From a virus (taxonomy: Duplodnaviria > Heunggongvirae > Uroviricota > Caudoviricetes): 64,000 bases of DNA. Where the stretch lies: the IMG/VR virus record IMGVR_UViG_3300012956_000001, positions 153,730 through 217,729 of that record; one strand, 5' to 3'. Both the position numbers and the translations under genes were made by a program. Below are positions 4,233 to 54,415 of the stretch, one piece after another (position 1 is the first letter of the stretch; each line of letters begins with the position of its first letter). The notes beneath the pieces are model-generated. The model made no database searches. It was not told the DNA's origin and saw nothing but the letters and a program-made list of their open reading frames with translations.

Positions 4233-6454
4233 CATACAAAGGTATGACGGATCGGTTTGAAGAAAAAATGGATCGTCTCTACGGCAAATATTCTGCACGG
4301 GGTATCGATGGCGTAGGACAACCATTTTTAGAAATCAAGCCGAACGACCCGGACAGATCTAAAACAGCACACGACACACGATTGTCGCCGGGCCGATCAG
4401 CATCACTTGATCGATCACGTATTGCTGCATTCCTAAAGTCGCCAGCAGGCGTCAGATTCATGTTGAGTCAGGCAGAGTTACAGACAGGTAATACCTTCTC
4501 TGAAACTCGTCTGTACAATCCACTGTTTCCATTTGGACGATTAGATGCTAATTGGCTTCGTATTACTCGACCATTGGGCACTGCTCGTGGTGTAGGCGTA
4601 GGTGGTAACGGATCTACCAATATACTAGGAAGTGTGGTAAAGGGTTTGCTTACTGGTGATAATACCGTAGACCTTGCTGCACAAAAATCGCCTGGCTCTG
4701 ATGACAAGGTTGGTGGTGCTGGTAGACTTCAACGTGCAACATCACGTACGGTAGTAGATCGTGTAGTTGGTCGTAGTGGACCAACGGGACTATTAAACCT
4801 ACTACCACCAAACAAATTGACGCGTGTGGTCTCTGCCGTTAAGGGTGTACTAGAGACGGGCATATTAGATGTCAACGAACGACCAGAACTTGACATTGAT
4901 GGTCAATATTTTAGTATTGCACTATGGACAGGATTCTCACGAGTTCAGAAAGAACCAAATTCCTTTGTAAAGGCTGGTGCCGCTCTTCGTAAGGGTGATA
5001 TTGGTAGTGCATTGAGCAGCTTTGGCAGCGGTATAGTCAATACTATCAAAAAGAGCGTAGTCGGTACGAAGGGGTCGCCAATTCCAAACAAGGCAATAAC
5101 TGGAAGAAACGATCCCTCACGTACCGACTTAAGTGGTCTTCGATACTTCATTGTTAACAAGAATGATGCAGATCGATACTTACAAAATTCTATGCAAGGT
5201 ACACTTCCATCATTAGAATATTTGCATCGGTTGCCATATAAACTACAGGGCACTTCGCCGTTACTTACAAACACACCAAATACGTCTACAGCAACATCTG
5301 CTGCGGATAAACAAAAGCAAGTACAACGAGACACTGAGAAGAAAAAGAGCTTTCTTAGTAAGGTTGGTGGGTTTGTTAAGAGTGCCGCGACTATATTAAT
5401 TGGTGGTACCGCCAAGGCTGGTACAAACATTAACATCGGACCAACCGACCCAACCACAGGTCGATTGATTTCTGGTGCACAAACATCAAATCCGTTTGCA
5501 CAGAATCCTGCAGAAGAACGAATGTTGTTTGGTGAAATGTCACTAGGCAGCAAATACGAATCTGCCGATGGCGATGTAAAAGTATTTAAAGCCGATCTCG
5601 AAGAACAGACCAAGATATGGCAAGCTGACATTCGACAGCTTGTAACCGATAGAACCTATAATCTTGGATACGTCGGTGGTCTTACACCAGGCGTGAAGAT
5701 TGTTGACGATTTTGGTATCTTTGCATCCAAGAGAACAAAAGTTGACGGTGGCCGATACTTCAGCGACGGCGCTGCTGGATCGCCTGCAATTATGACCAAC
5801 AAAGAAAGTGATGTCGGCGGTAGAACGGTCAATGCAGATCTAAAAACAGAAATTCGTGACACATATAAGGATCTCATAGACTTCATGTTTCACGATTACG
5901 TTAACAATCAAGTCATTCCATTTAGAGCATCACTTACCCAGATTGCAGAATCAGTTACGGCAGATTTTGACGCACAACGATACATCGGACGTACAGAAAA
6001 GAATGTCGTATATGCTGGCGCTGGTAGAGAATTGACGTTTACGTTTTATGTACAAGCATATAGCAAAAAAGAGTTAGACTTTATTTGGAAAAAGATAAAC
6101 TATCTGACGGGTTTGTGTTTTCCAGCATCGTATGCTGATGGATTCATGGTTCCACCATTTGTACAATTGACCATCGGTAACTACTACGTCGATCAGCCAG
6201 GATACATTAAGAGCATCAATCACACAGTAGAAGATAATACATCATGGGACATTGATGTTGATGCACAAGTTCCTATGGGCATGACTATATCGGTAAGCTT
6301 CTCAGTAATAGAGAAGACACAGGTTCGAACAGGCTATAGCTTCTATGGCTATCCAGAACCGCCGCCGCGCACACAAGATAATCAGCCAGGATCACAGACC
6401 GTAGCAATTAATACAGCGGGCGTACCGTCTGCCACCGAACCGAGAACCGCATGA
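4229..6454 (+). CDS. tail/baseplate structural protein
   Basis: 741-aa ORF, ATGA overlap with tape measure stop; Gly/Thr-rich, no enzymatic motif recognised. Confidence 0.45.
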   Translation: MTYKGMTDRFEEKMDRLYGKYSARGIDGVGQPFLEIKPNDPDRSKTAHDTRLSPGRSASLDRSRIAAFLKSPAGVRFMLSQAELQTGNTFSETRLYNPLFPFGRLDANWLRITRPLGTARGVGVGGNGSTNILGSVVKGLLTGDNTVDLAAQKSPGSDDKVGGAGRLQRATSRTVVDRVVGRSGPTGLLNLLPPNKLTRVVSAVKGVLETGILDVNERPELDIDGQYFSIALWTGFSRVQKEPNSFVKAGAALRKGDIGSALSSFGSGIVNTIKKSVVGTKGSPIPNKAITGRNDPSRTDLSGLRYFIVNKNDADRYLQNSMQGTLPSLEYLHRLPYKLQGTSPLLTNTPNTSTATSAADKQKQVQRDTEKKKSFLSKVGGFVKSAATILIGGTAKAGTNINIGPTDPTTGRLISGAQTSNPFAQNPAEERMLFGEMSLGSKYESADGDVKVFKADLEEQTKIWQADIRQLVTDRTYNLGYVGGLTPGVKIVDDFGIFASKRTKVDGGRYFSDGAAGSPAIMTNKESDVGGRTVNADLKTEIRDTYKDLIDFMFHDYVNNQVIPFRASLTQIAESVTADFDAQRYIGRTEKNVVYAGAGRELTFTFYVQAYSKKELDFIWKKINYLTGLCFPASYADGFMVPPFVQLTIGNYYVDQPGYIKSINHTVEDNTSWDIDVDAQVPMGMTISVSFSVIEKTQVRTGYSFYGYPEPPPRTQDNQPGSQTVAINTAGVPSATEPRTA

Positions 6455-17882: not shown

Positions 17883-19733
17883 ATGAACCTTAGTAGCAAG
17901 ATTTTGTCCGACCTTACCACCCACATGAAATATTCGAAGTATCTCCCCGAATTCAATCGTCGTGAAACCTGGCAAGAGACTGTAACACGTAACAAACAAA
18001 TGCATCTGAAGAAGTTTCCTCAACTTGCAGATGAAATTGAACAAGCTTATCAATATGTCTATGATAGAAAAATCCTACCATCAATGCGATCCGTACAATT
18101 TGCAGGTAAGGCTGTTGAACTGAATCCGGCCCGAATTTACAATTGTTCATTTTTGCCTATTGACAGCGTTGATGCGTTCTCAGAAATTATGTTTTTGCTT
18201 CTATCTGGTGTGGGTGTTGGATATTCAGTCCAACGGCATCACGTAGAAAAACTTCCTCCAATTAATAAGAACAAAAAGACTCGTCGATTTGTTATCGGTG
18301 ATAGCATTGAAGGATGGGCCGACTCCATTAAAGTATTAATCCGTGCGTATCTGGACGGCAAGCCGACGCCAGTATTTGATTTCTCAGATATTCGTCCAAA
18401 GGGTGCACGATTGGTGACTTCTGGCGGCAAAGCACCGGGACCAGAACCACTTAAGGACTGCTTGCACAACATTCAGAAGATTCTAGATCGTAAGGATACT
18501 GGCGATCAACTACGACCAATTGAAGTACACGATATTTGTTGTTATATTGCCGATGCTGTATTAGCCGGTGGCATTCGTCGGTCTGCTATGATTGCATTGT
18601 TCAATATTGACGACGAAGACATGCTATCAGCAAAGACGTTTGATGAATTGGAACGTAACCCACACCGTCACCGTTGTAACAATAGTGCTGTCATCATTCG
18701 TCACAAGATTGAGAAAGAAGTGTTCCTTGATTTGTGGGCGAAGATCGAGGCATCGAAGTCTGGTGAGCCGGGCTTCTTTATGACGAACAGCGCCGATTGG
18801 GGATTGAATCCCTGTGCTGAAATCAGCCTACGACCATTCCAATTCTGTAACCTCACTACGATTGACGTTACTGATCTTGAAACCCAAGAAGAATTTGATG
18901 CACGAGCAAAGGCTGCAGCATTCATTGGTACACTACAGGCATCATACACAAACTTCCATTATCTTCGTGATATCTGGAAGCGTACGACCGAGAAGGAAGC
19001 GTTAATTGGCGTCAGTATGACTGGTATCGCGTCGGGTAACGTTCTCGCGTTGAACATGAAGACTGCTGCTGGGATTGTGAAGGAAGAAAATGCTCGTGTG
19101 GCTGCATTAATTGGCATTAACAAGGCCGCTAGAACCACTACGATTAAGCCCGAAGGAACTACTTCATTGGTATTGGGTGCCTCGTCTGGTATTCACGCAT
19201 GGCACAATGATTACTACATTCGTCGTATTCGTGTCGGTAAGAACGAAGCAATCTATCATCACCTAAACCAATACCATCCACAGTTGCTGGAGGATGAATT
19301 CTTCAAGCCAAACCAACAAGCCGTCATTGCTATTCCGGTCAAGGCACCAACTGGCGCTATAACACGACAAGAATCAGCCATTGATCTATTGTCACGCGTC
19401 TCTAAGGTGTGGAAGGAGTGGGTTAAGGCAGGGCATCGCCGTGGTGACAACGTAAACAACGTATCAGCAACCATTACTGTTAAGGATGAAGAATGGGTGG
19501 ATGTTGGTGAATGGATGTGGACGAACCGAGAACATTATACTGCACTATCTGTATTGCCATACGCGGACCACAACTACATTCAGGCACCATTTGAAGACAC
19601 CACACAGGAAGTGTATGACGAAATGATGTCACACATTGAAGCATTAGATTTGTCGCAGGTGTACGAACCAGAAGATGAAACCGAGTTGCAGCAGACCGTT
19701 GCGTGTGGCGGCGGCAGTTGCGAAGTGGTCTAA
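17883..19733 (+). CDS. nrdJ: adenosylcobalamin-dependent ribonucleoside-triphosphate reductase (class II, monomeric)
   Basis: 616 aa; active-site NPCAEISL motif, C-terminal CGGGSCEVV redox tail typical of class II RNR. Confidence 0.8.
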   Translation: MNLSSKILSDLTTHMKYSKYLPEFNRRETWQETVTRNKQMHLKKFPQLADEIEQAYQYVYDRKILPSMRSVQFAGKAVELNPARIYNCSFLPIDSVDAFSEIMFLLLSGVGVGYSVQRHHVEKLPPINKNKKTRRFVIGDSIEGWADSIKVLIRAYLDGKPTPVFDFSDIRPKGARLVTSGGKAPGPEPLKDCLHNIQKILDRKDTGDQLRPIEVHDICCYIADAVLAGGIRRSAMIALFNIDDEDMLSAKTFDELERNPHRHRCNNSAVIIRHKIEKEVFLDLWAKIEASKSGEPGFFMTNSADWGLNPCAEISLRPFQFCNLTTIDVTDLETQEEFDARAKAAAFIGTLQASYTNFHYLRDIWKRTTEKEALIGVSMTGIASGNVLALNMKTAAGIVKEENARVAALIGINKAARTTTIKPEGTTSLVLGASSGIHAWHNDYYIRRIRVGKNEAIYHHLNQYHPQLLEDEFFKPNQQAVIAIPVKAPTGAITRQESAIDLLSRVSKVWKEWVKAGHRRGDNVNNVSATITVKDEEWVDVGEWMWTNREHYTALSVLPYADHNYIQAPFEDTTQEVYDEMMSHIEALDLSQVYEPEDETELQQTVACGGGSCEVV

Positions 19734-19746
19734 CAGGAGAAAGATA

Positions 19747-20331
19747 ATGACAGGTTATGTAAATCATAGTGGTGGATGTAAAGGCGCTGATATGGCGTGG
19801 GAAGTTGCTTGTGATGCACACGGTGTAAAGACGATTGCATATTCATTTCACAATCACATTAATGAATCTGCAAATCCATATATTATGACAATTGATGAAC
19901 TTAAAGAAGGATACGAACAAGCGTTAATTGCTGATAAGTCTTTGCATCGTCAATTTACACGTACATTCCCAACATATGAAGATCCATTGCACATGTATGT
20001 AAAGAATTTAATATGTCGTAATTGGTTTCAAGTCAAACATGCTGAGTCAATTTATGCTATTGGCACATTTGCCACTAAAAACAAAACACAAGTAAATGGT
20101 GGCACCGGATGGGCAGTTCAAATGGCAGTAGATAATAGCAAGCCTGTACTTTTCTTTGATCAAGACTCAGATGGATGGTACATCTATGATTATTCTGTTG
20201 GCAGATTTGAATACATCGAGGGGACGCCAATATTGACGGTTCAATTTGCGGGTATAGGTACGAGAGACATTAAAGACAATGGTCTTCAAGCAATACTAGA
20301 TGTGGTGGAACACACTTTCTCACCAAAGTAA
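19747..20331 (+). CDS. Rossmann-fold SLOG/DprA-LOG-like nucleotide-binding protein
   Basis: N-terminal GGCKGADMAWEVA resembles the GxxxGxD motif of DprA/LOG/SLOG proteins; start set at ATG 19747 after AGGAGA RBS rather than the track ORF start that overlaps nrdJ. Confidence 0.4.
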   Translation: MTGYVNHSGGCKGADMAWEVACDAHGVKTIAYSFHNHINESANPYIMTIDELKEGYEQALIADKSLHRQFTRTFPTYEDPLHMYVKNLICRNWFQVKHAESIYAIGTFATKNKTQVNGGTGWAVQMAVDNSKPVLFFDQDSDGWYIYDYSVGRFEYIEGTPILTVQFAGIGTRDIKDNGLQAILDVVEHTFSPK

Positions 20332-20412
20332 TCTTCGAATTGAAACTTCGAATGTTGTTTTTGATTTGAACTTCAACTACTTATAGTTGAAGTATGGAAA
20401 CAAGAGGGTTTT

Positions 20413-20967
20413 ATGGGTAATAAGCGCCGATCAAAATATGAAAACAAATTTGCCAGTGGTCACACATTTGGCCACTGGCAGGTAACCACGGGCCAGATCG
20501 TTGGCTCACCAGCAACCATTGAAGTTAAGTGTGTTTGTGGTCATACCAAGTTTGTTGATGTATATACGTTGGTCAACGGTAAGTCGGTTAGTTGTGGCTG
20601 TGTTCGCGTAGGCGAGAACGCTCCCAACTGGAAGGGTGTCAAGGGGGTTGCCACGGCAACACTCTCACGAATGATCGGAACGAGCAATGTGTCTGCCAAT
20701 TATGCATCGGTGGTGTACAATGCTCAGAATGGACATTGTGCTCTTACAGGACAGACGCTAACCGCAACATCTGCTCGAGTAGCTCCTATCGATGTATCCA
20801 AGCCCATCTCTGGATCTAATGTAATGCTCGTACACAATAGTATTGCTAGTACTGCTAATGCACTTGGTGCATATGGTACACAAGCAATATCTAATCAGAT
20901 TGTCTCCAATACTTCATTTTCAAACAACATTTTCGATAAGTTAGGATTCAAACCTAACGGAGACTAA
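20413..20967 (+). CDS. HNH-like homing endonuclease (degenerate), paralog of 23034-23654
   Basis: N-terminal FGHW...C.CGH...SCGC zinc-binding block shared with the 23034 ORF; HCALTGQTL...ID...NVMLV resembles a DRID-type HNH core. Confidence 0.45.
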   Translation: MGNKRRSKYENKFASGHTFGHWQVTTGQIVGSPATIEVKCVCGHTKFVDVYTLVNGKSVSCGCVRVGENAPNWKGVKGVATATLSRMIGTSNVSANYASVVYNAQNGHCALTGQTLTATSARVAPIDVSKPISGSNVMLVHNSIASTANALGAYGTQAISNQIVSNTSFSNNIFDKLGFKPNGD

Positions 20968-20969
20968 TC

Positions 20970-21149
20970 ATGTGTTACGTTCGCTCTTGTTGCAACTGTT
21001 GTGGCTGTAGATGCTGTCACGGATATCATTATGTGGCACCACGACCAATATACATTTCACCAGTTACAACCACAACTGTAGTTACCACCACAACCACCAC
21101 ACGTACTAACGTCCTAGATAAACTAGGCTTCAATAAAAGAGGTTACTAA
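20970..21149 (+). CDS. cysteine-rich, Thr-rich mini-protein (59 aa) not in ORF track
   Basis: MCYVRSCCNCCGCRCCHGYHY...TTTTVVTTTTTT...LDKLGFNKRGY; 2-nt and 1-nt spacers to flanking genes. Confidence 0.45.
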   Translation: MCYVRSCCNCCGCRCCHGYHYVAPRPIYISPVTTTTVVTTTTTTRTNVLDKLGFNKRGY

Positions 21150-21150
21150 T

Positions 21151-21915
21151 ATGGCTACCAAGACTACCAAGACTGTAAAGAAGACAGTCAAAGCAAAGAA
21201 GACTACATCGAAGAATACCGCCAAAAAGACTTATGTAGCCATTGTTCTTGATCGTTCTGGCTCAATGGGTGGACTTGTAAAGGAAACTGTTGCTGGATTA
21301 AACGAACAGTTTGCTGCACTTCGCCGAGACGCTGATCTAGGCGGTGAAACCGAAGTTACTCTGGTACAGTTTGATGATCGTATTGATATCATACTGGATG
21401 GACAGCCGGCTAAGGAACTGGTTAATTGGACGGACAAAGATTTCCAACCGCGTGGCATGACCGCTATGTACGATGCCATCTGGACAGCCATCACCAACTT
21501 GAAGTCCAAGCATGAAACAGAAGATACGGGCTTTTTGGTATGTGTTATTTCCGATGGTCACGAAAATTCATCCCGCGAAATTACCCAACCAGCTCTATCA
21601 GCAGAAATCAAGCGTCTTCAAGATAGTGGCAAGTGGACATTTACGTACATGTTGGCAAATCAAGACATTCATCAGGCGGCTGCAACGCTTGGAGCCAACA
21701 TCAACAATGTCAGTTCATGGACGACCACGACTGCAGGTGCCGGAATTGCATATACAAGTAATGCCGTCGGCGCAGCATCATATCTAGGTGCTCGTAATTC
21801 TGGGTTGAGATCGGTAAGCAACTTTTATGCTAGTGCCACACCCACGGTAGCTAACATTGATCCAAATTCAACTGCTGCACCATCAACCACAACAGCCAAT
21901 ACACAAGGTAAGTAA
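21151..21915 (+). CDS. von Willebrand factor A domain protein with Lys-rich histone H1-like N-terminal tail
   Basis: MIDAS motif VLDRSGSMGG (DxSxS), downstream T and D residues (ISDGHENSS); N-terminus MATKTTKTVKKTVKAKKTTSKNTAKK. Confidence 0.75.
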   Translation: MATKTTKTVKKTVKAKKTTSKNTAKKTYVAIVLDRSGSMGGLVKETVAGLNEQFAALRRDADLGGETEVTLVQFDDRIDIILDGQPAKELVNWTDKDFQPRGMTAMYDAIWTAITNLKSKHETEDTGFLVCVISDGHENSSREITQPALSAEIKRLQDSGKWTFTYMLANQDIHQAAATLGANINNVSSWTTTTAGAGIAYTSNAVGAASYLGARNSGLRSVSNFYASATPTVANIDPNSTAAPSTTTANTQGK

Positions 21916-21916
21916 T

Positions 21917-22228
21917 ATGACCGAACTCACCCCGTCTGAATTTGACACACTAGTAACCACCAATGACATGTTTGTAATAAAGTTTTGGGCGGGGTGGTGC
22001 GAGTCTTGTATGGAAGCAGATCCTATTATTGAATCCGTCGCATCTACAACAGAAATACCATTTTATTCTGTGAATGTAGATTTGTATCCAGAAATTAAAC
22101 ATAGTGCACGTATAAAAGCGATCCCGGCTGTTTTATTTTACAAAGAGCGCCGTGTGCGATCATTTTTATTTGGCAATATTACAGAAGATAAAATCAAACA
22201 ACGACTATTGATGTTGGAGAGAATGTAA
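21917..22228 (+). CDS. thioredoxin-like protein
   Basis: FWAGWCESCM contains WCxxC active-site motif; start taken at ATG 21917 one nt after vWA stop. Confidence 0.7.
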   Translation: MTELTPSEFDTLVTTNDMFVIKFWAGWCESCMEADPIIESVASTTEIPFYSVNVDLYPEIKHSARIKAIPAVLFYKERRVRSFLFGNITEDKIKQRLLMLERM

Positions 22229-22229
22229 T

Positions 22230-22688
22230 ATGAACATAGGTTTTATGAAATTAGATCCAAAAGCAACCATTCCCACCAAAGCACATGATGATGATCTTGG
22301 ATTTGATTTGTATGCTTTAGAAGATGTAGACATTCTCGCAGGCGATGTAACAAAGGTACGAACGGGTATCGCAATGCGGTCACCCTCTAAATTCTTTACG
22401 AATGGATTGCTGACTACATTGGTAAACTATGGTGGAATACTAAAGGATCGATCCAGCGTGGCCACCAAGCAAAAAGTGTTCGTGGTTGCTGGGGTTATTG
22501 ATCCTCAATATACGGGTGAAATACTCGTAGCATTTGCTAATCCTCTTAATAAGGATGTAATGTTTAAGGCCGGTGATAAAATTGCACAGTTGGTACTAGT
22601 AGCTAGTCATCCAGCAGATGCACATGAAATTTTTGAAATTCAACCAACTACACGAGCCGACAAAGGTTTTGGGAGCAGCGGAACATGA
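22230..22688 (+). CDS. dut: dUTP pyrophosphatase
   Basis: 152 aa; GFDLYA, RSPS, GVIDPQYTGEI motifs of trimeric dUTPase. Confidence 0.85.
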   Translation: MNIGFMKLDPKATIPTKAHDDDLGFDLYALEDVDILAGDVTKVRTGIAMRSPSKFFTNGLLTTLVNYGGILKDRSSVATKQKVFVVAGVIDPQYTGEILVAFANPLNKDVMFKAGDKIAQLVLVASHPADAHEIFEIQPTTRADKGFGSSGT

Positions 22689-22999
22689 ACTTAATTGATT
22701 GGATTGATTCAAAGCCATTTGAATTCAAGAAAATCAACGTTCGTCCGTGGGGCGGATTTGAGCTATCCGTAAGCAAAGATGCTACTAATTGGATTGCTTT
22801 TAGCCGCCCCTTTGGCTCTGGATTCACTGAAAAGGAAGCATTTGAAAGCCTCTTGATTGAATCGTTACAATCTGATATATTACGTCCACAAATTACCAAT
22901 TGGATCGGTGAGGAATGGATTAAAGAATTGCAAGAAATCCCACAACCACAGGTTACTGATGTTCCAGAACATATGCATTTGACACCATACACTAGCTAG
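22685..22999 (+). CDS. hypothetical protein
   Basis: 104-aa ORF with ATGA overlap to dut. Confidence 0.4.
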   Translation: MNLIDWIDSKPFEFKKINVRPWGGFELSVSKDATNWIAFSRPFGSGFTEKEAFESLLIESLQSDILRPQITNWIGEEWIKELQEIPQPQVTDVPEHMHLTPYTS

Positions 23000-23033
23000 T
23001 TATACAGTATAATAACTACACATATGGTGATTC

Positions 23034-23654
23034 ATGAAATATTCTATGTTACAAATTGCAAGCAATAGTAAGTATATTAATTTTGTTAAGCTAAATGAAT
23101 GTTTTGGTCATTGGCGTATATTAGATATTACCGCACATGTGACAAAAAATAAAAGACAAAGCGGCATTTATTTTTTATGCAAATGTAATATATGCCAAAT
23201 AAAAACTCAGTTTGTTAACATACATCAATTAAAAAAACATAAGTCTTTTAATTCTGGTGGGTGTATTTCTTGTTCTAGGAAGCGTAATACGCCGTCGGGA
23301 AATGAAAGTATATTATGGAAGGGTTACGAAGAAATACCGATGTCGTATATACACAACATACGAAATTCTGCAATTAGAAGAAATTTGAAATGGGATGTAG
23401 ATTTGCCTTATTTGTGGAATTTATTTCTACACCAAAATAGAATGTGTAAAATTTCTGGTGTGTCATTGAATTTTTCATCTTCTATAAATTTACGAGATGG
23501 AACAGCATCATTAGATCGTATTGATAGATCTATAGGATATATTCGTGGTAATTTACAATGGGTACACAAAATTGTAAATGAAATGAAGTGGGACATGACG
23601 GATGTTGAATTAATCAATTGGTGTAATACTATATCACATTATAATGGTAAATAA
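23034..23654 (+). CDS. freestanding HNH homing endonuclease, markedly AT-rich
   Basis: N-terminal FGHW..C.C..C zinc module; C-terminal SLDRIDRSIGYIRGNLQWV HNH core; local AT-rich composition and flanking palindrome AGTTATAcagTATAACT at 22997-23016. Confidence 0.7.
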   Translation: MKYSMLQIASNSKYINFVKLNECFGHWRILDITAHVTKNKRQSGIYFLCKCNICQIKTQFVNIHQLKKHKSFNSGGCISCSRKRNTPSGNESILWKGYEEIPMSYIHNIRNSAIRRNLKWDVDLPYLWNLFLHQNRMCKISGVSLNFSSSINLRDGTASLDRIDRSIGYIRGNLQWVHKIVNEMKWDMTDVELINWCNTISHYNGK

Positions 23655-23660
23655 TACTAG

Positions 23661-26225
23661 ATGTATAACAATATATTTATAACAAATAGAACTGCCGATC
23701 AAGACTCTATTGTATATGTGTGGGGTGACGGCCAACATAATGATTCAGGATTGCACACATACAATTGGTCAGATTTTAACTATTCTTATAAGCTTGATCG
23801 TAATGGTGATAAGCAAACCATTTACGGTGATCGTGTAAGTCGTACAACACGATGGACCGAGGGTGCAAGCAATATATTCGAGAGCGATGTACCGCGTGAA
23901 ACCCGCGTACTCACCGACCTATATCTTGACAGCGACGAAGTAGCCAAGAATCATCGACTGCTTGTATTCGACTTGGAAGTGGAACGTGTTGCTGGTGCAT
24001 TTGCCTCGGTCGAAAAGGCTGATGGTAGAATCACCGCAATTGGTTGTTATGCCGACGTTCGTGATGAGTACGTGGTGTTTCTGCTCGATGATAAACAAAG
24101 ATTCTCCCCAAGAAAACAAACCGTAAAGAACGAAACCATTATTGCATTTGACTCTGAGAGTGAAATGCTTGAAGCGTTTCTATCCTATTATAGTGACTAT
24201 GCACCAACGTTGCTAACTGGATGGAACATCTATGCATATGACGTACCATATCTGTATCGTAGATTGATGGTGTTGTTTGACAAAGAAACGGCCAACTCAC
24301 TCAGTCCGATTGGAATGGTCAAATACTCCAAGCGCCGCGGGCAGTATCAAATTGCTGGTGTAAGTTGTTTGGACTATCTTGAAATGTATCAGAAGTTTAC
24401 ATTCTCACGCCGTCCGAGTTATCGCTTGCATGACATTGGATTGTATGAAGTAGAGATGGGTAAGATCGAATACGATGGCAGTCTAGATGACTTCTACAAA
24501 AACGACCTACCAGGCTTTATTGAGTACAACCTTCAAGACGTGCGTATCGTTGTTGAAATTGACAAGAAGATGAAGCTTGTGGATCTGGTCAAGAATATCA
24601 GTCACGTTGGCCATACACAATACGAAGATTATCGTTACAGTTCAAAGTACATTGAAGGTACGATTCTAACTTATCTACATCGTCAGGGTCGTGTCGTACC
24701 CAACAAGCGTGCTGAAGGACGTGCTGAATTTGAAGAAAAGCTTGAACTAGACGAGGAAGGATTCAAGGGTGCGTATGTAAAGGAACCAGAGACGGGCTTG
24801 TATAATTGGGTGTATAACCTAGACTTACAATCACTGTATCCGTCAATCATTATGTCATTGAACATTAGTCCAGAGACAAAGATTGGATACGTCAAGAATT
24901 GGAACCTTGACCAGCATTTAAAGAAAACTGCAACACATTACATTGTTGAGATTGGATCGGCAGAAAATCTACTGACCAGAGATCAGTTTATTCAATTCAT
25001 GAAAGACGAAAAGTTCATGGTATCGTCCAATGGTGTATTGTATCGATCCGACAAGCTCGGCGTCATTCCAGAAATTCTAGATGTGTGGTTCAATCAGCGA
25101 CTAGAATTTAAGAGCCTACAGAAGAAATACAAGAAAGAGGGTAATGTCGATCTTGCTGGGTACTATGATCGTCGTCAGCACGTGCAGAAGATTTTGCTGA
25201 ATTCGATTTATGGTGTTCTTGGATTGCCTATCTTTAGATTCTACGATCTGGACAATGCATTGGCTGTTACTGCGACCGGACAAGATGTTATCAAGATGAC
25301 CGCAAAATTCATCAATCAAAAATACATCAAACACACCGGGGACACCGATAAGACAGATTGGTGTATTTACATCGACACTGACTCTGTATATTTCAGTGCA
25401 GAACCATTTTTTGATGGCACCGAGAAAACCGACGAAGATCGTATTAAGAAAACGATTGAAGTTGCTGCGGATGCGGAAGAATCAGTAAACAAGTTCTATG
25501 ATGTGATGTCACGCGTTTCATTCTTCTGTATGAATCATCGATTTGTCATTAAACCAGAATATGTTTCACGTAGAGCAATGTGGGTGGCCAAGAAGCGATA
25601 TGCATTATGGACCGTACACGATTTAGACAATAATGTGCCGGTTACATCTACAGAACCATCCGTCAAGGGATTAGACATTCGTCGATCAAGTTTCCCACCA
25701 GCGTTCAAGGATTTGATGAACAATTGCTTGACCGGCATTCTTAATGACGCACCAAAGGAAGAATTGGATGTCATTATCTTGAAGTTTAGATCGGATATGA
25801 ACTCTATGTCATTTAAGACTATCGCACGAAATACATCAGTGAAGAATGTTTCAGAGTTCGATGTCAAGGGTGCAGTAGGATACCAAAAGTTTCCTAAGAA
25901 GGCCGCTGCTCACGTAAAGGCATCGGTATCATACAATCGTTGGCTCCGAGCACACAAGATGGATAAATCGCATGGTGTGATTCGTGACGGTGATAAGATC
26001 AAGTGGTGTTACTTGAAGAAAAACGAATTTGGTATTAAGACAATGGCGCTTAAAGGATATGATGATCCCGAGGAACTACAAGAACTCGTATACAACAATA
26101 TTGACCACCAGACCCTATTCGACAACGAATTAAAGAATAAACTGGATGATTTTTACTCTGCTATGGGGTGGGGATTGGTGCCAACCTCAGTCAATCAGTC
26201 GGCCGCGACCTTCTTTGACTTCTAG
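23661..26225 (+). CDS. gp43: family-B DNA polymerase (T4 gp43-like)
   Basis: 854 aa; exo motif LVFDLEVE, motif A DLQSLYPSII, motif C YIDTDSVYF, KKRY motif. Confidence 0.9.
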   Translation: MYNNIFITNRTADQDSIVYVWGDGQHNDSGLHTYNWSDFNYSYKLDRNGDKQTIYGDRVSRTTRWTEGASNIFESDVPRETRVLTDLYLDSDEVAKNHRLLVFDLEVERVAGAFASVEKADGRITAIGCYADVRDEYVVFLLDDKQRFSPRKQTVKNETIIAFDSESEMLEAFLSYYSDYAPTLLTGWNIYAYDVPYLYRRLMVLFDKETANSLSPIGMVKYSKRRGQYQIAGVSCLDYLEMYQKFTFSRRPSYRLHDIGLYEVEMGKIEYDGSLDDFYKNDLPGFIEYNLQDVRIVVEIDKKMKLVDLVKNISHVGHTQYEDYRYSSKYIEGTILTYLHRQGRVVPNKRAEGRAEFEEKLELDEEGFKGAYVKEPETGLYNWVYNLDLQSLYPSIIMSLNISPETKIGYVKNWNLDQHLKKTATHYIVEIGSAENLLTRDQFIQFMKDEKFMVSSNGVLYRSDKLGVIPEILDVWFNQRLEFKSLQKKYKKEGNVDLAGYYDRRQHVQKILLNSIYGVLGLPIFRFYDLDNALAVTATGQDVIKMTAKFINQKYIKHTGDTDKTDWCIYIDTDSVYFSAEPFFDGTEKTDEDRIKKTIEVAADAEESVNKFYDVMSRVSFFCMNHRFVIKPEYVSRRAMWVAKKRYALWTVHDLDNNVPVTSTEPSVKGLDIRRSSFPPAFKDLMNNCLTGILNDAPKEELDVIILKFRSDMNSMSFKTIARNTSVKNVSEFDVKGAVGYQKFPKKAAAHVKASVSYNRWLRAHKMDKSHGVIRDGDKIKWCYLKKNEFGIKTMALKGYDDPEELQELVYNNIDHQTLFDNELKNKLDDFYSAMGWGLVPTSVNQSAATFFDF

Positions 26226-28648: not shown

Positions 28649-29584
28649 ATGAGCAACGATACCCCTACAACGGATGTGGGCGTTATTATCGGTAGATTTC
28701 AAGTTCATCAGTTGCATGAAGCTCACATTGAGCTGATTGAGACGGTGAACAAGAAGCACGATAGGACGCTCATTTTTATTGGCCTGAGCCCACTCCGCAA
28801 CACCACCAGAAATCCTATGGACTTCAACACGCGTCGAAAGATGATTCTTGAATCATTTCCGCAGGTTGAAGTTTATTATATCGAAGATCATCGTAGTGAC
28901 GAAGTTTGGTCTGCCAACTTGGACCGAGAAATTACTAAGTGGTTGAAGCCCCACCAAACCGTCACACTCTATGGTAGTCGGGATAGTTTTATTTCGTCTT
29001 ATCATGGACGATACCAGACTGTTGAATTGCAGTCGAGCAAGATTATCTCTGGATCAGAAATCCGGCGGCGTATTTCGAATTCCTTTGAAAAGGATAAGTC
29101 GTATCGTGCCGGTGTGATTGCCGCGACATTTGATCGATATCCTACCAGTTACACGACCGTTGACATCGCAATCATAAACGAAAAGAATGAAGTTTTGCTG
29201 GGCAAGAAGCCCGGTGAGTTTGCTCTTCGATTCATCGGCGGATTCGCCAGCCCTGATTCCGACACATTCGAACAGGATGCTCGTCGTGAAGCAATGGAAG
29301 AAACTGGACTGAGCATTGATACTCTACGATATGTTGGATCGGCCAAGATCGATGACTGGCGGTACCGTGGTGAGATAGACAAAATCAAAACACTGTTCTT
29401 TGTAGGAAATTACATGTACGGTGCTCCCGAAGCAGGAGATGACATCGAATACGTGGAATGGGTAGATATGACGAGTCTGTTTTCTGGTAAGATTCACATT
29501 GTACCCGAACACATTCCGCTCGTTGTTATGCTCGGTGAATATGTGGGACAAAAGGCTTCGATTTTCAACAACAAAACCTCTTAG
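28649..29584 (+). CDS. bifunctional nicotinamide-nucleotide adenylyltransferase / Nudix hydrolase (NadM-Nudix type)
   Basis: N-terminal GVIIGRFQVHQLHEAH (cytidylyltransferase-fold HxGH-type motif), C-terminal Nudix box REAMEETGL. Confidence 0.7.
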   Translation: MSNDTPTTDVGVIIGRFQVHQLHEAHIELIETVNKKHDRTLIFIGLSPLRNTTRNPMDFNTRRKMILESFPQVEVYYIEDHRSDEVWSANLDREITKWLKPHQTVTLYGSRDSFISSYHGRYQTVELQSSKIISGSEIRRRISNSFEKDKSYRAGVIAATFDRYPTSYTTVDIAIINEKNEVLLGKKPGEFALRFIGGFASPDSDTFEQDARREAMEETGLSIDTLRYVGSAKIDDWRYRGEIDKIKTLFFVGNYMYGAPEAGDDIEYVEWVDMTSLFSGKIHIVPEHIPLVVMLGEYVGQKASIFNNKTS

Positions 29585-29942: not shown

Positions 29943-31322
29943 ATGACAAATTCCATTATGACCACGAGCAACATTCTTCGTAGTGACTCATACAAGGTCA
30001 GTCACCACAAGCAATATCCAGAAGGCACCACAGGCATCTATTCGTATATGGAGAGCCGCGGCGGCGCATTCCCCGAAACAGTGTTCTTTGGTCTTCAATA
30101 TTACTTGAAGGAATATCTCTCCCGCCAGATCACAATGGCCGATGTAGATTATGCCGAACAACGTATGAACAAGCACCTTGGGCCCGGCATTTTCAATCGT
30201 GCTGGTTGGGAACGTATTGTGACCAAGCACAACGGCTATCTGCCTGTTCGTATTAAGGCGGCACCAGAGGGGTTGGTCATTCCTACGCGTAACGTATTGA
30301 TGACCATTGAGAATACCGATCCTGAGTTGCCGTGGGTTACCAATTATGTCGAGACAATGTTGCTGAAAACATGGTATCCCATTACGGTCGCCACCATTTC
30401 CCGCGAAATCAAAAAGCTGATTCACCGATATCTTGATGAAACAGGTGACGTTAGTGGCATCGATTTCAAGTTGCATGACTTCGGATATCGTGGTGTGAGC
30501 TCCGAGGAGTCGGCGGCTATTGGTGGTATGGCACACCTTGTCAACTTCAAGGGTACGGACACCATGATTGCCCTTGAAGCCGCTGATATCTACTACGGCG
30601 AGGATATGGCCGGATTCAGCATTCCTGCCGCAGAACACTCGACCATTACCGCATGGGGTCGTGAGTTTGAATATGAAGCATATCAAAACATGATTCAACA
30701 GTTTGGTAATGGCCCATTGTACGCCGTGGTCAGCGACTCCTACAACATCTATGATGCATGTGAAAAGTTGTGGGGTGGGTCGTTGAAGGCACAAGTACTT
30801 GCTGCACCGGGCACATTGGTCATTCGTCCTGACTCTGGTGTACCACATGAAGTGGTTCGTCAGATTACCGAAATTCTCGGCCGTCAGTTTGGTTATACAA
30901 CCAACGACAAGGGCTATAAGGTACTGAATAAGGTTCGTGTCATTCAGGGCGACGGCATCAACTACGAAGAAATTGGTCGCATCCTTGAAGCATTGAAGAT
31001 TCGTGGATGGAGTGCTGACAACGTGGCATTCGGCATGGGCGGTGCCCTACTTCAGCAGTCGAACCGAGACACACAGAAGTTTGCCATTAAGGCGTCGAGC
31101 ATGGTTCGTAATGATCGTATTCGTGATGTATGGAAAGATCCGGTCACGGACAACGGTAAGCGCTCTAAGCGTGGTCGGTTGAAGCTTGTGTGGAATAGTG
31201 GCGTATTGGAAACGGTGGAAGAACATCAGCCCGGCCACGATGTAATGCAAACGGTTTGGGAAAATGGTGAATTGTTGGTGGATCAGACGTTTGATACCAT
31301 CCGTGGATCGGCCAAAATTTAA
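29943..31322 (+). CDS. nadV: nicotinamide phosphoribosyltransferase (Nampt/NadV)
   Basis: 459 aa; N-terminal ILRSDSYKVSHHKQYP and overall type-II PRTase layout characteristic of NadV. Confidence 0.85.
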   Translation: MTNSIMTTSNILRSDSYKVSHHKQYPEGTTGIYSYMESRGGAFPETVFFGLQYYLKEYLSRQITMADVDYAEQRMNKHLGPGIFNRAGWERIVTKHNGYLPVRIKAAPEGLVIPTRNVLMTIENTDPELPWVTNYVETMLLKTWYPITVATISREIKKLIHRYLDETGDVSGIDFKLHDFGYRGVSSEESAAIGGMAHLVNFKGTDTMIALEAADIYYGEDMAGFSIPAAEHSTITAWGREFEYEAYQNMIQQFGNGPLYAVVSDSYNIYDACEKLWGGSLKAQVLAAPGTLVIRPDSGVPHEVVRQITEILGRQFGYTTNDKGYKVLNKVRVIQGDGINYEEIGRILEALKIRGWSADNVAFGMGGALLQQSNRDTQKFAIKASSMVRNDRIRDVWKDPVTDNGKRSKRGRLKLVWNSGVLETVEEHQPGHDVMQTVWENGELLVDQTFDTIRGSAKI

Positions 31323-32050: not shown

Positions 32051-32089
32051 GTGTATATTGGATCTTGTTCTTTTACCTCAGAGGAGTAC

Positions 32090-32809
32090 ATGAAAAAGAG
32101 TTTACTTGAACGGTTTATTTCGAAGTACAATCTAGCTGGTGCGGTTGACGGAGTTACGTGGACCGCTGATGCTACAGGCCTATCCACAGAATTTGTAAGT
32201 GACGACAAGCACGTTATCGGCAAGATCAAAACCCCAAACATTAAATTTGATGATGGCAAGTATTCCATCTATGAGACGAAGGCGTTTCGTAGTTTGTTGG
32301 GTGTCTTAGACGATGAGATTGCTGTGTCCGTCAATCTTACCAACAATAAGCCACGGTCTTTGTCCATTAAGGATGATTCTACAAAGGTGGCATTCGTTCT
32401 TGCAGACCCGGCCAACATTCCGGGTGTTGCTACTTTGAAGCAGTTGCCTACGTTTGAAAACGTTATCACCTTGGACAAGACATTTGTTGACCGATTCATT
32501 AAGTCAACTGGTGCATTGGTAGATGTAGAAACGTTCACGGTCTTGTCTGATGGCAAGAAGGCTGAGATTGTGGTTGGATACGACAATAACAACACCAATC
32601 GCGTAACACTCTCCGTCACTGGCACACAGCTACAGAAGTGTGATCCCATTGATTTCCATGCACGATACATGAAGGAAATTTTGATGGCGAATCGTGAAGC
32701 CACGAGCGGTAAGTTTGAAGTGGCCAACGCTGGACTAGCACGTATCACATTTGAAATTGAAGATTTCGAAGTTGTGTACTATCTTCCCGTGGTCAAGCGA
32801 GAGAACTAA
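32090..32809 (+). CDS. gp45: sliding clamp (T4 gp45-like), start placed at ATG 32090 after GAGGAG
   Basis: about 240 aa, two-domain beta-rich protein located in clamp/clamp-loader synteny upstream of gp44 and gp62 homologs. Confidence 0.55.
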   Translation: MKKSLLERFISKYNLAGAVDGVTWTADATGLSTEFVSDDKHVIGKIKTPNIKFDDGKYSIYETKAFRSLLGVLDDEIAVSVNLTNNKPRSLSIKDDSTKVAFVLADPANIPGVATLKQLPTFENVITLDKTFVDRFIKSTGALVDVETFTVLSDGKKAEIVVGYDNNNTNRVTLSVTGTQLQKCDPIDFHARYMKEILMANREATSGKFEVANAGLARITFEIEDFEVVYYLPVVKREN

Positions 32810-33982
32810 ATGAGTTTAGATCAGTTTTTTGATACACCACAATTTGATGTAGAGGCCGAGAAGGTTCGGTTTATCGAACACCTAGATCGCCTAAAAGCGA
32901 TGGATGTTCGTGAACAAACTCTATATCAGAAATGGTATGAATTGTCCACCGAATACAAGTGGGCATCAAACAAAGCATCCATCTTGAAGGCCAATATCTG
33001 GCGACCCACGAATATACAGGATCGTGACGGAACCATTGCCGAATTGAAGGCCCTTCGTCCTAGGCTGCGTTTTATCGAAAAGACTGATAAGAAGGGTATT
33101 GAGGATTGGCTCATTTATCGTGTATTGATGAGTACGTTTAACTTCGACCAAAATCCGGGCCGATTCCTCAGATTTCTCGTTGAAGATGAAGTAACGGACA
33201 AGGTGCTTGGTATTACGTCACTGGGCTCTGATGTCATTAACATTGGATGCCGTGACCGATATATTGGTTGGAATGAAACCGACAAGTTGGCGGGCATGTT
33301 GAATCACACTGCCATTGGCACAACCATTGTCGCAACTCAGCCATTCGGTTACAACTTCCTTGGTGGTAAGCTTATCGCTGCCTTACTTGTGACGCCTACC
33401 ATTCGAGACATTTGGAAGCGTGAATACGGCGAGACATTGGTGGGCATTACTACCACTTCGTTGTATGGCGACGGATCAATGTATAACAGCATTCCGTGGT
33501 GGAAGTCATTGGGTGAAACCACTGGTAAGATTCCATTGAAGCCCACGGATGAATACTACATGCCATGGCACGAGATCATCAAAACCAAATATCCAGAACA
33601 ATATGATAAGTTGTTGTGGAACGCTGTTGGTGGTCCGTCCACTGGCGTTAAACAGAAAATCATTAACGTGATTTTCAAAGAAGTGGGCGTCAAGCCATCA
33701 CAGTATGTACACGGTTTCAATCGTGGTGTCTACTTTGCTTCGTTGTACGAAAACACCAAAGAGTTTCTCCGTAAGGAAATCACCGATGCTGAATTGATAC
33801 CAATCAAGCGATCAACGTCGATGGACGCCGTTATGGAGTGGTGGACAAAGAAAGCCATTTCACGATACGAGAAGTTACATGCCGAAGATAGACTAAAGCC
33901 CGAAGTGTTGTTCTATAATGATGTAATGTTCCAAACATGGGACGAAACAAAAACCAAATATCTTGGTGAGGTTGGCCGATAA
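32810..33982 (+). CDS. hypothetical 390-aa protein inserted between clamp and clamp-loader genes
   Basis: no motif recognised; TAAATG overlap with clamp gene. Confidence 0.45.
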   Translation: MSLDQFFDTPQFDVEAEKVRFIEHLDRLKAMDVREQTLYQKWYELSTEYKWASNKASILKANIWRPTNIQDRDGTIAELKALRPRLRFIEKTDKKGIEDWLIYRVLMSTFNFDQNPGRFLRFLVEDEVTDKVLGITSLGSDVINIGCRDRYIGWNETDKLAGMLNHTAIGTTIVATQPFGYNFLGGKLIAALLVTPTIRDIWKREYGETLVGITTTSLYGDGSMYNSIPWWKSLGETTGKIPLKPTDEYYMPWHEIIKTKYPEQYDKLLWNAVGGPSTGVKQKIINVIFKEVGVKPSQYVHGFNRGVYFASLYENTKEFLRKEITDAELIPIKRSTSMDAVMEWWTKKAISRYEKLHAEDRLKPEVLFYNDVMFQTWDETKTKYLGEVGR

Positions 33983-34188
33983 TGTCATCAATACGAAAAA
34001 ACAAACGAATGTTATTCAATAGAGCATTTGGCCGTCGAAGTGCAAAGGAAGAACCACAAAACTTGCCGGCGATACCAAACCCAAATGCATATCCTGTTAG
34101 GCACAAGCCATTAGGCAGATCGTCGGGAAGTGTAGAGGGTGTTGCCGGGTGGCGGTCAAATTACTATAAATTGGATGAAATCAAATGA
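33982..34188 (+). CDS. small basic hypothetical protein
   Basis: 68 aa; overlaps flanking genes by 1 and 4 nt. Confidence 0.3.
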   Translation: MSSIRKNKRMLFNRAFGRRSAKEEPQNLPAIPNPNAYPVRHKPLGRSSGSVEGVAGWRSNYYKLDEIK

Positions 34189-35102
34189 ATCATAGTTTGT
34201 GGGTTGAACAATACAGACCAACCACACTTGACGATTACATTGGCAACGATGCTTTGAAGGCCAAGGTTGGTCGTATGATTGCAGATGGCGACATTCCACA
34301 TCTATTGTTGAGTGGTCCACCGGGCACGGGCAAGACGACTGTTGCTAAGATCATCGTCAAAAACATTGAGTGTGATTACCTATACATCAATGCATCAGAT
34401 GATAACAACGTCGAAACCGTCCGTACTAAGATCAAGTCATTCGCATCTACCATCGGCTTCAAGCCAATGAAGATCATTATCTTGGACGAGGCAGATTACA
34501 TCACGATCAACGGCCAGGCTGCTCTCCGTAACATCATGGAGACGTTCTCACGGACCACGCGGTTTATCCTAACATGTAACTTCGTGGAACGAATCATTGA
34601 TCCGATTGTCAGTCGTACACAACAGTTTCATGTTGTACCACCGACTAAAATCGATGTTGCCAAGCACGTTGCTGGTCTTTTGAAAAAGGAAGATGTGAGT
34701 TATCAACCAACCGATGTGAAGTTGTTGGTGGATGCCCATTATCCCGATATTCGAAAAATCATTAATGAAGCCCAATTGAACACGATGAACGGTCAACTGA
34801 CCATTGATGCTGAAGAAGTCGTGTCGAGCGACATCAAGTTGAAGGTGGTTGAGTTGCTCGGTCAGAAGGGCGATGCAAAGAAACGATTCCAAGATATTCG
34901 TCAATTGGTTGCCGATGCTGGCATTCGAGACTTTTCGGACATGTATACGCTTCTATACGAGAAGGTCGATCAGTATGGCAAGAGTCATGTGAGTCAAGTC
35001 ATCTTGCATATTGCTGAAGGTCAGAAATATGATGGTCAGGTAGTGAATAAAGAAATCAACATGATGAGCACAATCATCAACATACTTCAAACCATAGGAT
35101 AA
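34185..35102 (+). CDS. gp44: clamp loader large subunit, AAA+ (T4 gp44 / RFC-like)
   Basis: EQYRP...LLLSGPPGTGKTT Walker A, IIILDEAD Walker B, SRT/SRC-like sensor (VSRTQ). Confidence 0.9.
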   Translation: MNHSLWVEQYRPTTLDDYIGNDALKAKVGRMIADGDIPHLLLSGPPGTGKTTVAKIIVKNIECDYLYINASDDNNVETVRTKIKSFASTIGFKPMKIIILDEADYITINGQAALRNIMETFSRTTRFILTCNFVERIIDPIVSRTQQFHVVPPTKIDVAKHVAGLLKKEDVSYQPTDVKLLVDAHYPDIRKIINEAQLNTMNGQLTIDAEEVVSSDIKLKVVELLGQKGDAKKRFQDIRQLVADAGIRDFSDMYTLLYEKVDQYGKSHVSQVILHIAEGQKYDGQVVNKEINMMSTIINILQTIG

Positions 35103-42058: not shown

Positions 42059-42064
42059 GGATAT

Positions 42065-46629: not shown

Positions 46630-46744
46630 TATACCACCCAAGCCTAAGCCACCAGAACTAGAAGATCTCCCCGATCACATCAGTCCGTGGTTCGCCCTAT
46701 TATTTGTAATTCCCTTTGTCATCCTCATCATTCGGTCTCTATGA
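46622..46744 (+). CDS. 40-aa Pro-rich peptide with C-terminal transmembrane anchor, not in ORF track
   Basis: MPDIPPKPKPPELEDLPDHISPWFALLFVIPFVILIIRSL; start overlaps upstream stop, stop overlaps downstream ATG (cTATGAt). Confidence 0.35.
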   Translation: MPDIPPKPKPPELEDLPDHISPWFALLFVIPFVILIIRSL

Positions 46745-54403: not shown

Positions 54404-54415
54404 AGTTTTTATACA

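Follow-up and report, generated by a model that had tools for sequence, protein, structure and literature searches.

A C-terminal tail motif shared by an HNH-derived protein and a Cys-rich microprotein encoded upstream of a vWA/MIDAS protein in uncultivated T4-like phages

The ligands of integrin I-domains, CMG2/TEM8 and TRAP, which carry a metal ion-dependent adhesion site (MIDAS), supply an Asp or a Glu beside hydrophobic residues. The recruitment of a protein to a von Willebrand factor A (vWA) hub by a short motif has a precedent in the von Willebrand domain of Ku80 and the Ku-binding motif of XLF (PMC10682503). A literature search on phage vWA/MIDAS proteins and on phage metallothionein-like proteins turned up nothing relevant. 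We analysed a 64,000-nucleotide stretch of DNA from a virus of the Caudoviricetes (positions 153,730 to 217,729 of IMG/VR record IMGVR_UViG_3300012956_000001; called the window below) and describe here a cassette of three genes within it, which encode, in this order, a protein derived from an HNH endonuclease, a Cys-rich microprotein and a vWA protein with a MIDAS. The first two proteins end in tails that bear the same eight-residue motif. The features of the cassette are as follows.

20413-20967, + strand: gene for the HNH-derived protein (HNH-like protein), 184 amino acids, first gene of the cassette, with a C-terminus that reads ...NNIFDKLGFKPNGD
20926-20949, + strand: tail motif NIFDKLGF of the HNH-like protein, residues 172-179 (alignment A6)
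20959-20962, + strand: Shine-Dalgarno sequence GGAG for the open reading frame of the microprotein (mini-ORF), within the last codons of the HNH-like ORF
20970-21149 (stop codon 21147-21149), + strand: microprotein gene, 59 amino acids, ATG start, second gene of the cassette, encoding MCYVRSCCNCCGCRCCHGYHYVAPRPIYISPVTTTTVVTTTTTTRTNVLDKLGFNKRGY
20973-21020, + strand: Cys/His-rich head of the microprotein, residues 2-17, with eight Cys (read from the sequence)
21063-21107, + strand: Thr/Val tract of the microprotein, residues 32-46, with 11 Thr between residues 33 and 46
21108-21131, + strand: tail motif NVLDKLGF of the microprotein, residues 47-54 (regular-expression census, codon table and alignment A7)
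21137-21142, + strand: Shine-Dalgarno sequence AAGAGG for the vWA gene, within the last codons of the mini-ORF (read from the sequence)
21151-21915, + strand: gene for the vWA/MIDAS protein, 254 amino acids, third gene of the cassette, starting one base after the stop of the mini-ORF

An earlier note on this DNA had picked out the mini-ORF, and its description stands as regards the length of 59 amino acids, the CCNCCGCRCC block, the Thr tract and the C-terminus. It counted ten Cys in the first 17 residues; there are eight (positions 2, 7, 8, 10, 11, 13, 15 and 16), all of those in the protein falling within residues 2-16. The note was also right about the 1-nucleotide spacers between the mini-ORF, the vWA gene and a thioredoxin gene and about the identities of the latter two, but it had placed the Lys-rich tail of the vWA protein at the C-terminus and this tail is N-terminal. 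The repetition of DKLGF near the end of the upstream HNH-like ORF, to which it had drawn attention, was borne out.

Relatives of the locus were found via the vWA protein, since direct searches with the 59-residue microprotein came back empty. The 178 loci that were fetched, together with the window, gave 2,704,048 six-frame residues in which the motif could be counted. Eleven lineages carry the cassette (the window, L004, L006, L008, L170, L172, L090, L174, L175, L176 and L177), seven of which were covered by the codon-level comparison, and among the eleven the identity of the vWA proteins drops to 45%. The carriers are a clade of uncultivated T4-like phages.

The motif, N-x-[FL]-[DE]-[KRQN]-[LM]-G-[FM], is common to the HNH-like protein and the microprotein in 11 of 11 lineages; examples of the tail peptides that bear it are SNNIFDKLGFKPNGD and TNVLDKLGFNKRGY. 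It is exclusive to these two proteins: all 29 occurrences found in the census lie in the two cassette ORFs, each of them 4-9 residues before the stop codon, and no other ORF of the window contains it. The codons of the motif vary synonymously (GAT, GAC, GAG and GAA at the acidic position; TTA, TTG, CTA, CTT, CTG, CTC and ATG at the Leu/Met position; GGA, GGC, GGT and GGG for the Gly), and the 4-9 residues that follow differ in sequence and in length. Given this synonymous variation and the varying distance to the stop codon, the tail is conserved at the level of the protein and is not a by-product of the Shine-Dalgarno sequence of the next gene, which accounts only for the G/K-E residues at the extreme end of the tail. 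Across genomes the two tails keep their own flavours, NIF in the HNH-type tail and NxL in the microprotein-type tail; the two tails are old, separately maintained and not homogenised by gene conversion.

A short conserved motif that two otherwise unrelated proteins carry on a flexible tail, close to their C-termini, would also suit a degradation or turnover signal that is read by a protease or an adaptor and shortens the life of both proteins. ssrA-type C-terminal degrons depend on their terminal residues, and it is the residues past the motif that vary here. Moreover, the invariance of the acidic residue, together with the Gly, points to a structured contact, and a degron would leave the strict linkage to the vWA gene unexplained. 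We consider such a signal improbable.

The mini-ORF keeps its position and frame in all 11 lineages, and a further homologue was found in P0129, so that the conservation in related phages that the earlier note had put forward as a check was seen. In all seven lineages of the codon-level comparison the start is preceded at the same spacing by GGAG, AGGAG or AAGGAG, and AGAGG or AAGGGG equivalents are found ahead of the vWA gene in relatives. Between the window and L004, the mini-ORF shows 10 synonymous and 2 non-synonymous differences, which corresponds to a ratio of non-synonymous to synonymous polymorphism (pN/pS) of 0.06; the values for five flanking genes in the same comparison are 0.12-0.33. 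A scan of positions 20300-22300 against Rfam gave no family, and promoter and terminator sites in the region were not in excess over shuffled sequence; on these grounds an RNA element or attenuator was rejected. The conserved place and frame, the Shine-Dalgarno sites, the low pN/pS and the lack of Rfam, promoter or terminator signals together indicate, at the level of sequence, that the mini-ORF is a real, translated gene under purifying selection.

The same results bear on the reading of the mini-ORF as a regulatory leader peptide of the thrL/hisL type, in which ribosomes stalling on runs of Cys and Thr codons would tune the coupled translation of the vWA protein. Such a peptide would be expected to look much like this one, a short ORF with runs of both codons that ends 1 nucleotide before the next start and is skipped by gene callers. 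Selection acts on the amino acids, however; the tail is kept through synonymous changes and is common to a protein of 184 residues, the Thr run is not kept in L090 and L175, and neither a terminator/antiterminator nor an Rfam match was detected, with promoter and terminator sites not above the shuffled expectation. The leader reading retains a probability as small as that of the degron.

The 12 known members of the microprotein family (those of the 11 lineages and P0129) all start with M-C or M-x-C. Their heads contain 6-12 Cys and 2-7 His, and the middle of the protein is a P-x-[WY]-[VI]...P-x-T-T-T-T segment rich in beta-branched residues (alignment A7); the pure Thr run is missing in L090 and L175, and the stretch is rich in beta-branched residues in every member. 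The tail reads N-x-[FL]-[DE]-[KRN]-[LM]-G-[FM] across the family. An exhaustive phmmer search of 1.84 billion representative proteins returned a single additional called homologue, P0129 (59 amino acids, E 4.9e-5). A word-indexed search of 5.8 billion proteins with the microprotein yielded no homologues, a tblastn search against phages no matches, and scans against Pfam (E <= 0.1) and PHROGs (E <= 0.01) likewise none. The family is previously unannotated, and its genes are almost never called: the mini-ORF is uncalled in most assemblies, a gap of 170-230 nucleotides stands before the vWA gene in most contigs of the closer homologues, and the gene list of the assembly that contains the window DNA (SRR6448880) has a gap at the site of the mini-ORF. 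A similar uncalled gap holds the mini-ORF of L174, where it lies ahead of an extra vWA gene; in L176, by exception, the mini-ORF was called as a gene.

The earlier note had proposed a redox-active or RiPP-like (ribosomally synthesized and post-translationally modified peptide) precursor that is matured or kept reduced by thioredoxin, as part of an operon with the latter; the eight Cys in 59 residues and the many Thr speak for it. Two further features are needed to judge this proposal.

21917-22228, + strand: thioredoxin gene, 103 amino acids, one base after the stop of the vWA gene (PF00085, 58.6 bits against a cut-off of 23.5)
17883-19733, + strand: gene for NrdJ, a class II ribonucleotide reductase

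The active site of the thioredoxin is WCESC (residues 27-31), which differs from the canonical WCGPC. A thioredoxin gene follows the vWA gene in the window, L004, L006, L008, L177 and the P0013 contig, which in the first five of these places it two genes downstream of the mini-ORF. No thioredoxin gene follows the vWA gene in L170 and L175, however; in L172 and L174 it lies next to NrdJ, the order in L172 being NrdJ, thioredoxin and dUTPase ahead of the cassette, and in the cassette-less L171 it sits directly upstream of the vWA gene, which has no mini-ORF. The operon with thioredoxin was thus not upheld. Since the position of the thioredoxin gene shifts with the NrdJ/dUTPase genes, it falls outside the cassette; judged by gene order, the conserved unit is made up of the HNH-like, microprotein and vWA genes, and the thioredoxin belongs to the NrdJ/dUTPase nucleotide module. 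Modifying enzymes of the LanB/LanM, YcaO or radical SAM type were found neither in the window nor in the gene lists of the relatives, and a tail common to a 184-residue protein is unlike the logic of leader and core peptides. With the thioredoxin unlinked and no lanthipeptide, YcaO or radical SAM enzyme in the window, the redox or RiPP reading seems to us still less probable than a leader peptide. An O-glycosylated Thr-rich peptide, also put forward in the earlier note, found no support, the Thr run being missing in L090 and L175.

Between NrdJ and the HNH-like gene, a further ORF on the + strand (19675/19747-20331) matches phrog_768, a DprA-like recombination mediator (E 5.7e-17). It occupies position -3 in seven cassette-bearing loci. 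Its longest version, from an ATG at 19675, overlaps NrdJ by 59 nucleotides; the call in the assembly begins at 19747. The NrdJ of L176 (1201-4188, 995 amino acids) contains intein-splicing and LAGLIDADG domains, which indicates that this class II ribonucleotide reductase carries an inserted intein.

The HNH-like protein consists of an N-terminal CxC...CxC zinc-finger-like module, a degenerate HNH core and a flexible C-terminal tail. Residues 15-72 match phrog_374 (HNH endonuclease), and BLASTP aligns the protein with a canonical HNH endonuclease encoded elsewhere in the window with an E value of 2e-7; no Pfam HNH model was matched. Its AlphaFold2 (AF2) model has a mean predicted local distance difference test score (pLDDT) of 68. 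The best Foldseek matches of this model were the HNH domains of Cas9, Gme and T4 EndoVII, with probabilities of up to 1.0 over about 70 residues and weak E values starting at 0.017. Residues 161-184 have pLDDT values of 44-59 and form a one-turn helix at positions 173-176 (on IFDK); the tail is thus predicted to be flexible. It is the best-conserved part of the C-terminal third of the protein: Asn172, Ile173, Phe174 and Gly178 are invariant in alignment A6, in contrast to the preceding 30 or so residues, which are variable. In 5.8 billion proteins the family forms seven clusters, all of which end in N-I-F-[DE]-[KQ]-[LM]-G-[FML]. A back-translated pattern of this tail, AAYATHTTYGARMARHTNGGNWTBAARCC, gave no matches in IMG/VR.

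The catalytic residues are degenerate in most HNH-like members. By manual comparison, the protein of the window keeps His141 (LVHNS) and misses the Asn four residues past the His that is present in L006 (...VHKDINRMKN). The catalytic His is lost in L170 (WVNN), in L090 and P0127 (WVSP) and in L174 (WVYT). A canonical HNH motif is retained in L006 together with this tail, and in L174 a SegE-type GIY-YIG domain is fused in front of the HNH-like module. The motif persists through these changes of carrier in L006 and L174 and through the loss of the catalytic His in L170, L090 and P0127; the tail outlives changes in the catalytic equipment of the protein that carries it.

The homology of the first cassette gene to HNH homing endonucleases invites the reading that the mini-ORF and the duplicated tail are a functionless scar of an endonuclease insertion or of a local duplication, a split of this kind having been raised in the earlier note. 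The window does contain a second HNH gene that looks mobile:

23034-23654, + strand: canonical HNH endonuclease gene, directly upstream of the PolB gene; missing in the 88%-related L004, where a 100-residue ORF abuts PolB

Because it is absent at that position in L004, this gene is probably a mobile homing endonuclease. The cassette is less easily seen as a remnant. The start codon, Shine-Dalgarno sequence, frame, head, middle and tail of the mini-ORF are kept in 11 lineages at a pN/pS of 0.06, both tails are under protein-level selection in these lineages with many synonymous codon changes, and that of the HNH-like protein is the best-kept stretch of its region. The codon differences also show that the relatives are not recent recombinants sharing one identical segment. 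A split by endonuclease insertion did not survive these comparisons, and we regard a functionless scar as highly improbable.

The vWA protein matches PF00092 marginally (25.4 bits against a cut-off of 23.8) and phrog_7371 clearly (E 1.6e-36); it falls below the Pfam cut-offs for PF13519 and PF10138 (27.3 against 29.4 bits for the latter). Its N-terminus is Lys-rich, with 10 Lys in residues 1-26. The MIDAS held up in alignment, Asp34, Ser36, Ser38, Thr104 and Asp135 being invariant in 33 sequences and kept at >= 90% in a set of 121. In the AF2 model the core has pLDDT values above 90 and alternates between strands and helices. Foldseek returned 325 PDB matches for this core at E <= 0.001, with vWA/I-domains ranked at the top; the nearest solved folds are ligand-binding MIDAS domains, namely those of CMG2/TEM8, integrin I-domains, TRAP, ArnB and TFIIH p44. 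A search with the vWA protein gave 501 homologues, the closest with 88, 64 and 61% identity. The family is widespread, with members in 220 deposited phage genomes and hundreds of metagenomic contigs.

Clustering of the neighbours in 152 loci with a recognised vWA ORF, 140 of them in the main cluster, disclosed no universal partner gene for the family. In Synechococcus phage BUCT-ZZ01 the vWA homologue is surrounded by hypothetical genes only. Just one vWA subclade has the HNH-like and microprotein genes upstream, and where these two genes occur they are always together and always directly upstream of a vWA gene. The close relatives L171 and L091 carry the vWA gene without them. Since L171 and L091 have the vWA gene alone and the family has no constant neighbour, the HNH-like and microprotein genes are, from their distribution, clade-specific additions. 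In L174 the microprotein gene is followed first by another MIDAS vWA gene, unrelated to the orthologous one, which comes next; these genes and the GIY-YIG fusion lie within 3023-5753 of that locus.

Only one residue of the vWA protein was found to be specific to cassette-bearing lineages. Cys131 (codon 21541-21543), four residues before the MIDAS Asp135, is present in 11 of 11 of them and in 2% of 140 other vWA members; the two nearest relatives that lack the cassette have Ile or Thr there. Cys131 is suggestive as a cassette-linked residue, but it lies in a core strand and the comparison draws on two close relatives free of the cassette.

Some vWA homologues have been labelled 'Mg-chelatase subunit ChlD' by JGI, and the NrdJ gene lies 1.4 kb upstream of the vWA gene. 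These two points agree with the suggestion in the earlier note of a CobT/ChlD-like chelatase, with the vWA protein as its subunit and the Cys-rich peptide bringing cobalt or another metal to the B12-dependent NrdJ. NrdJ uses preformed adenosylcobalamin, however, and the suggestion found no backing in the genes of the locus. No AAA+ protein of the MoxR, CobS or ChlI type is encoded in the 64 kb, where the AAA+/P-loop proteins are the clamp loader, a DnaB-like helicase and a RecA-like protein, and in the comparison of neighbours NrdJ was close to the vWA gene in 15 loci, the vWA cluster counting 140. We give metal delivery to NrdJ next to no weight, as with the scar.

From the motif, its carriers and their gene order we infer the following model, to which we assign a probability of roughly 0.4. 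The HNH-like protein and the microprotein would each present the eight-residue motif on a flexible tail as a short linear docking peptide, which would bring both to a common partner. The most economical partner would be the vWA protein encoded next, and that the two genes always stand immediately upstream of a vWA gene was counted in its favour, as were the additional MIDAS vWA gene right behind the microprotein gene of L174, the invariant MIDAS residues, the ligand-binding character of the nearest solved structures and Cys131. The MIDAS metal of the vWA protein would take the invariant Asp/Glu of the motif, with the flanking hydrophobic residues filling a pocket, and the vWA protein itself would sit on DNA via its Lys-rich N-terminal tail. 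The Cys/His head of the microprotein would bind metal ions in a thiolate cluster, as a metallothionein does; its composition makes metal binding plausible.

Several observations weigh against docking on the vWA protein. Gene adjacency is circumstantial evidence. The vWA protein works without these clients, as L171 and L091 have it alone and the 140-locus cluster lacks a constant neighbour. When the microprotein was fused to the vWA protein for AF2, its part had pLDDT values of 47-59, with no secondary structure and no docking, although this is a weak test, there being no alignment rows for that part and the model being a monomer with no metal. Furthermore, His and aromatic residues are commoner in the microprotein than in classical metallothioneins.

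Some of these points also speak for docking of the shared tail on another hub, either a host protein or the sliding clamp of the phage, the vWA protein being a mere neighbour. The cassette lies within a replication module, whose members around it include FEN, helicase, NrdJ, PolB, ligase, clamp and clamp loader. The following three are needed for the comparison.

23661-26225, + strand: PolB gene
32051-32809, + strand: sliding clamp gene
34185-35102, + strand: clamp loader gene

The sequence NIFDKLGF aligns without gaps to SLFDMFDF, which we take to be the clamp-binding tail of the RB69 polymerase, with agreement at I/L, F, D and the final F. In addition, the tail was not docked on the vWA protein in the AF2 fusion, and the vWA protein occurs without both clients in L171 and L091. 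On the other side, the motif is found in no other replication protein, whether in the 64 kb or in the related loci. The PolB of the window ends in ...SAATFFDF, a different pattern at the extreme C-terminus, in contrast to the motif, which stops 4-9 residues short of the end. Finally, the two genes are never found away from a vWA gene. The clamp or another hub is a serious rival to docking on the vWA protein, if an unlikely one.

Docking on the vWA protein could be extended to a DNA-associated complex that has not been seen before, in which a DNA-tethered MIDAS vWA hub would capture, by one and the same C-terminal peptide, a domesticated DNA-binding protein derived from a homing endonuclease and a metallothionein-like microprotein. 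Within such a complex, the microprotein could compete as a decoy or could switch the nuclease-derived client in a metal-dependent way. This wider reading is doubtful in our estimation, though somewhat better placed than docking on another hub.

These data bring out a conserved gene under selection that is passed over by standard gene callers, and a microprotein family that is missing from Pfam and PHROGs, with one homologue among 1.84 billion representative proteins. For phrog_7371, a vWA family that has no assigned function, candidate ligands are now at hand in the shared tail. If docking is true, the locus would provide an example of a bacterial virus that recruits proteins to a vWA hub by a short linear motif, of a domesticated homing endonuclease that gained a recruitment tail, and of a phage-encoded Cys/His metal-binding microprotein. 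The wider complex, if true, would comprise the first metallothionein-like protein from a phage and, in a virus of prokaryotes, a counterpart to the recruitment of short motifs by the vWA domain of Ku. If docking is false, the microprotein family and the motif are still valid as annotated features.

The long ORFs of the window are all on the + strand, and about 68 of its ORFs were scanned with Pfam and/or PHROGs. The long ORFs make up a T4-like module for replication and nucleotide metabolism, with a gp32-like single-stranded DNA-binding protein, a RecA/UvsX-like protein, FEN, a DnaB-like helicase, NrdJ, PolB, an ATP-dependent ligase, the clamp and the clamp loader; a dUTPase was confirmed by the Pfam/PHROGs scans. 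By PolB, the nearest deposited phage is Microcystis phage Mel-JY01 (39.6% identity), which has no annotated vWA gene near PolB. A megablast search with positions 19600-23700 against 50,697 phage records gave no matches. The DNA of the window is also present in the Logan assembly of SRR6448880.

Other genes of the window and its relatives are recorded here. Between clamp and clamp loader, an ORF at 32810-33982 (+ strand, 390 amino acids) matches the Pfam family DruA of the Druantia anti-phage defence (E 8.5e-26, 91 bits against a cut-off of 27). A NUDIX-domain protein (28649-29584) lies beside a nicotinamide phosphoribosyltransferase (29943-31322; NAMPT, E 2.5e-56), both on the + strand, and the two look like a phage pair for NAD+ salvage or reconstitution. 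Downstream of the replication module, from about 41477 to 59539 (+ strand), is an 18-kb sugar-modification island with glycosyltransferases of the GT4, GT1 and GT2 types and a GT7/GalT-like one fused to a methyltransferase; it also encodes three Methyltransf_24 proteins, an NDP-sugar epimerase/dehydratase, a nucleotidyl transferase, a transaldolase-like protein and a DHBP synthase (ribB, E 6.6e-72). An SPFH/Band 7 protein is encoded at 54416-55249 (+ strand, E 2.6e-12) and a subtilase-family (S8) protease at 61702-63201 (+ strand, E 4.1e-20). Mom-like genes (PF25680) were found downstream of PolB in L008, L170, L172, L174, L175 and L177, the last having a tandem pair; the window ORFs scanned with Pfam gave no Mom match. 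The recurrence of these genes hints at DNA base modification in the clade.

The cassette can be compared with several described systems. Its vWA protein clearly belongs to phrog_7371. As to vWA proteins of the TerY-YegL type (PF10138, vWA-TerF-like), PF10138 is below the cut-off and a TerY-type kinase or phosphatase partner is lacking. The first cassette gene is comparable to the free-standing HNH and GIY-YIG homing endonucleases (Mob/Seg type) of T4-like phages, being homologous to the one at 23034-23654 and having a canonical HNH in L006 and a SegE-type domain in L174. It differs from them in being fixed at one locus in 11 lineages instead of occurring sporadically and in having mostly degenerate or lost catalytic residues; the mobile HNH copy at 23034-23654, for its part, is without the conserved C-terminal tail of the cassette protein. 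With metallothioneins such as the cyanobacterial SmtA and the mycobacterial MymT, the microprotein has in common its very small size, the arrangement of Cys as CC, CxC and CCC, and interspersed His. Unlike these proteins, it has its Cys within the first 20 or so residues, frequent aromatic residues, a Thr/Val-rich segment, a conserved tail and no Pfam or PHROG homology.

The clamp-binding tails of gp43, gp33 and gp55 of T4 and RB69 are likewise short hydrophobic/acidic C-terminal motifs that recur on several proteins in the setting of a replication module, but the motif of the cassette is not terminal, is unlike the ...ATFFDF of the phage's own PolB and is absent from the other replication proteins. 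Among solved folds, the vWA core comes closest to integrin I-domains, CMG2/TEM8 and TRAP (Foldseek E 3e-9 to 1e-7), and its DxSxS...T...D MIDAS is complete. The identity is 12-19%, these receptors are extracellular and eukaryotic, and AF2 placed no tail on the phage vWA protein. For Ku70/80 there is no sequence relation, and Ku is a ring that encircles DNA, as opposed to a single domain with a Lys-rich tail that may bind DNA in the phage; to our knowledge, the vWA domains of Ku have no MIDAS, in contrast to the intact site of the phage protein. What the cassette would share with Ku70/80 and its Ku-binding motifs (those of XLF, APLF, PAXX and WRN) is the arrangement of a DNA-bound vWA hub that recruits unrelated clients, nucleases among them, through short motifs on flexible termini, and in this phage the same short motif is indeed found on the flexible termini of two unrelated proteins.

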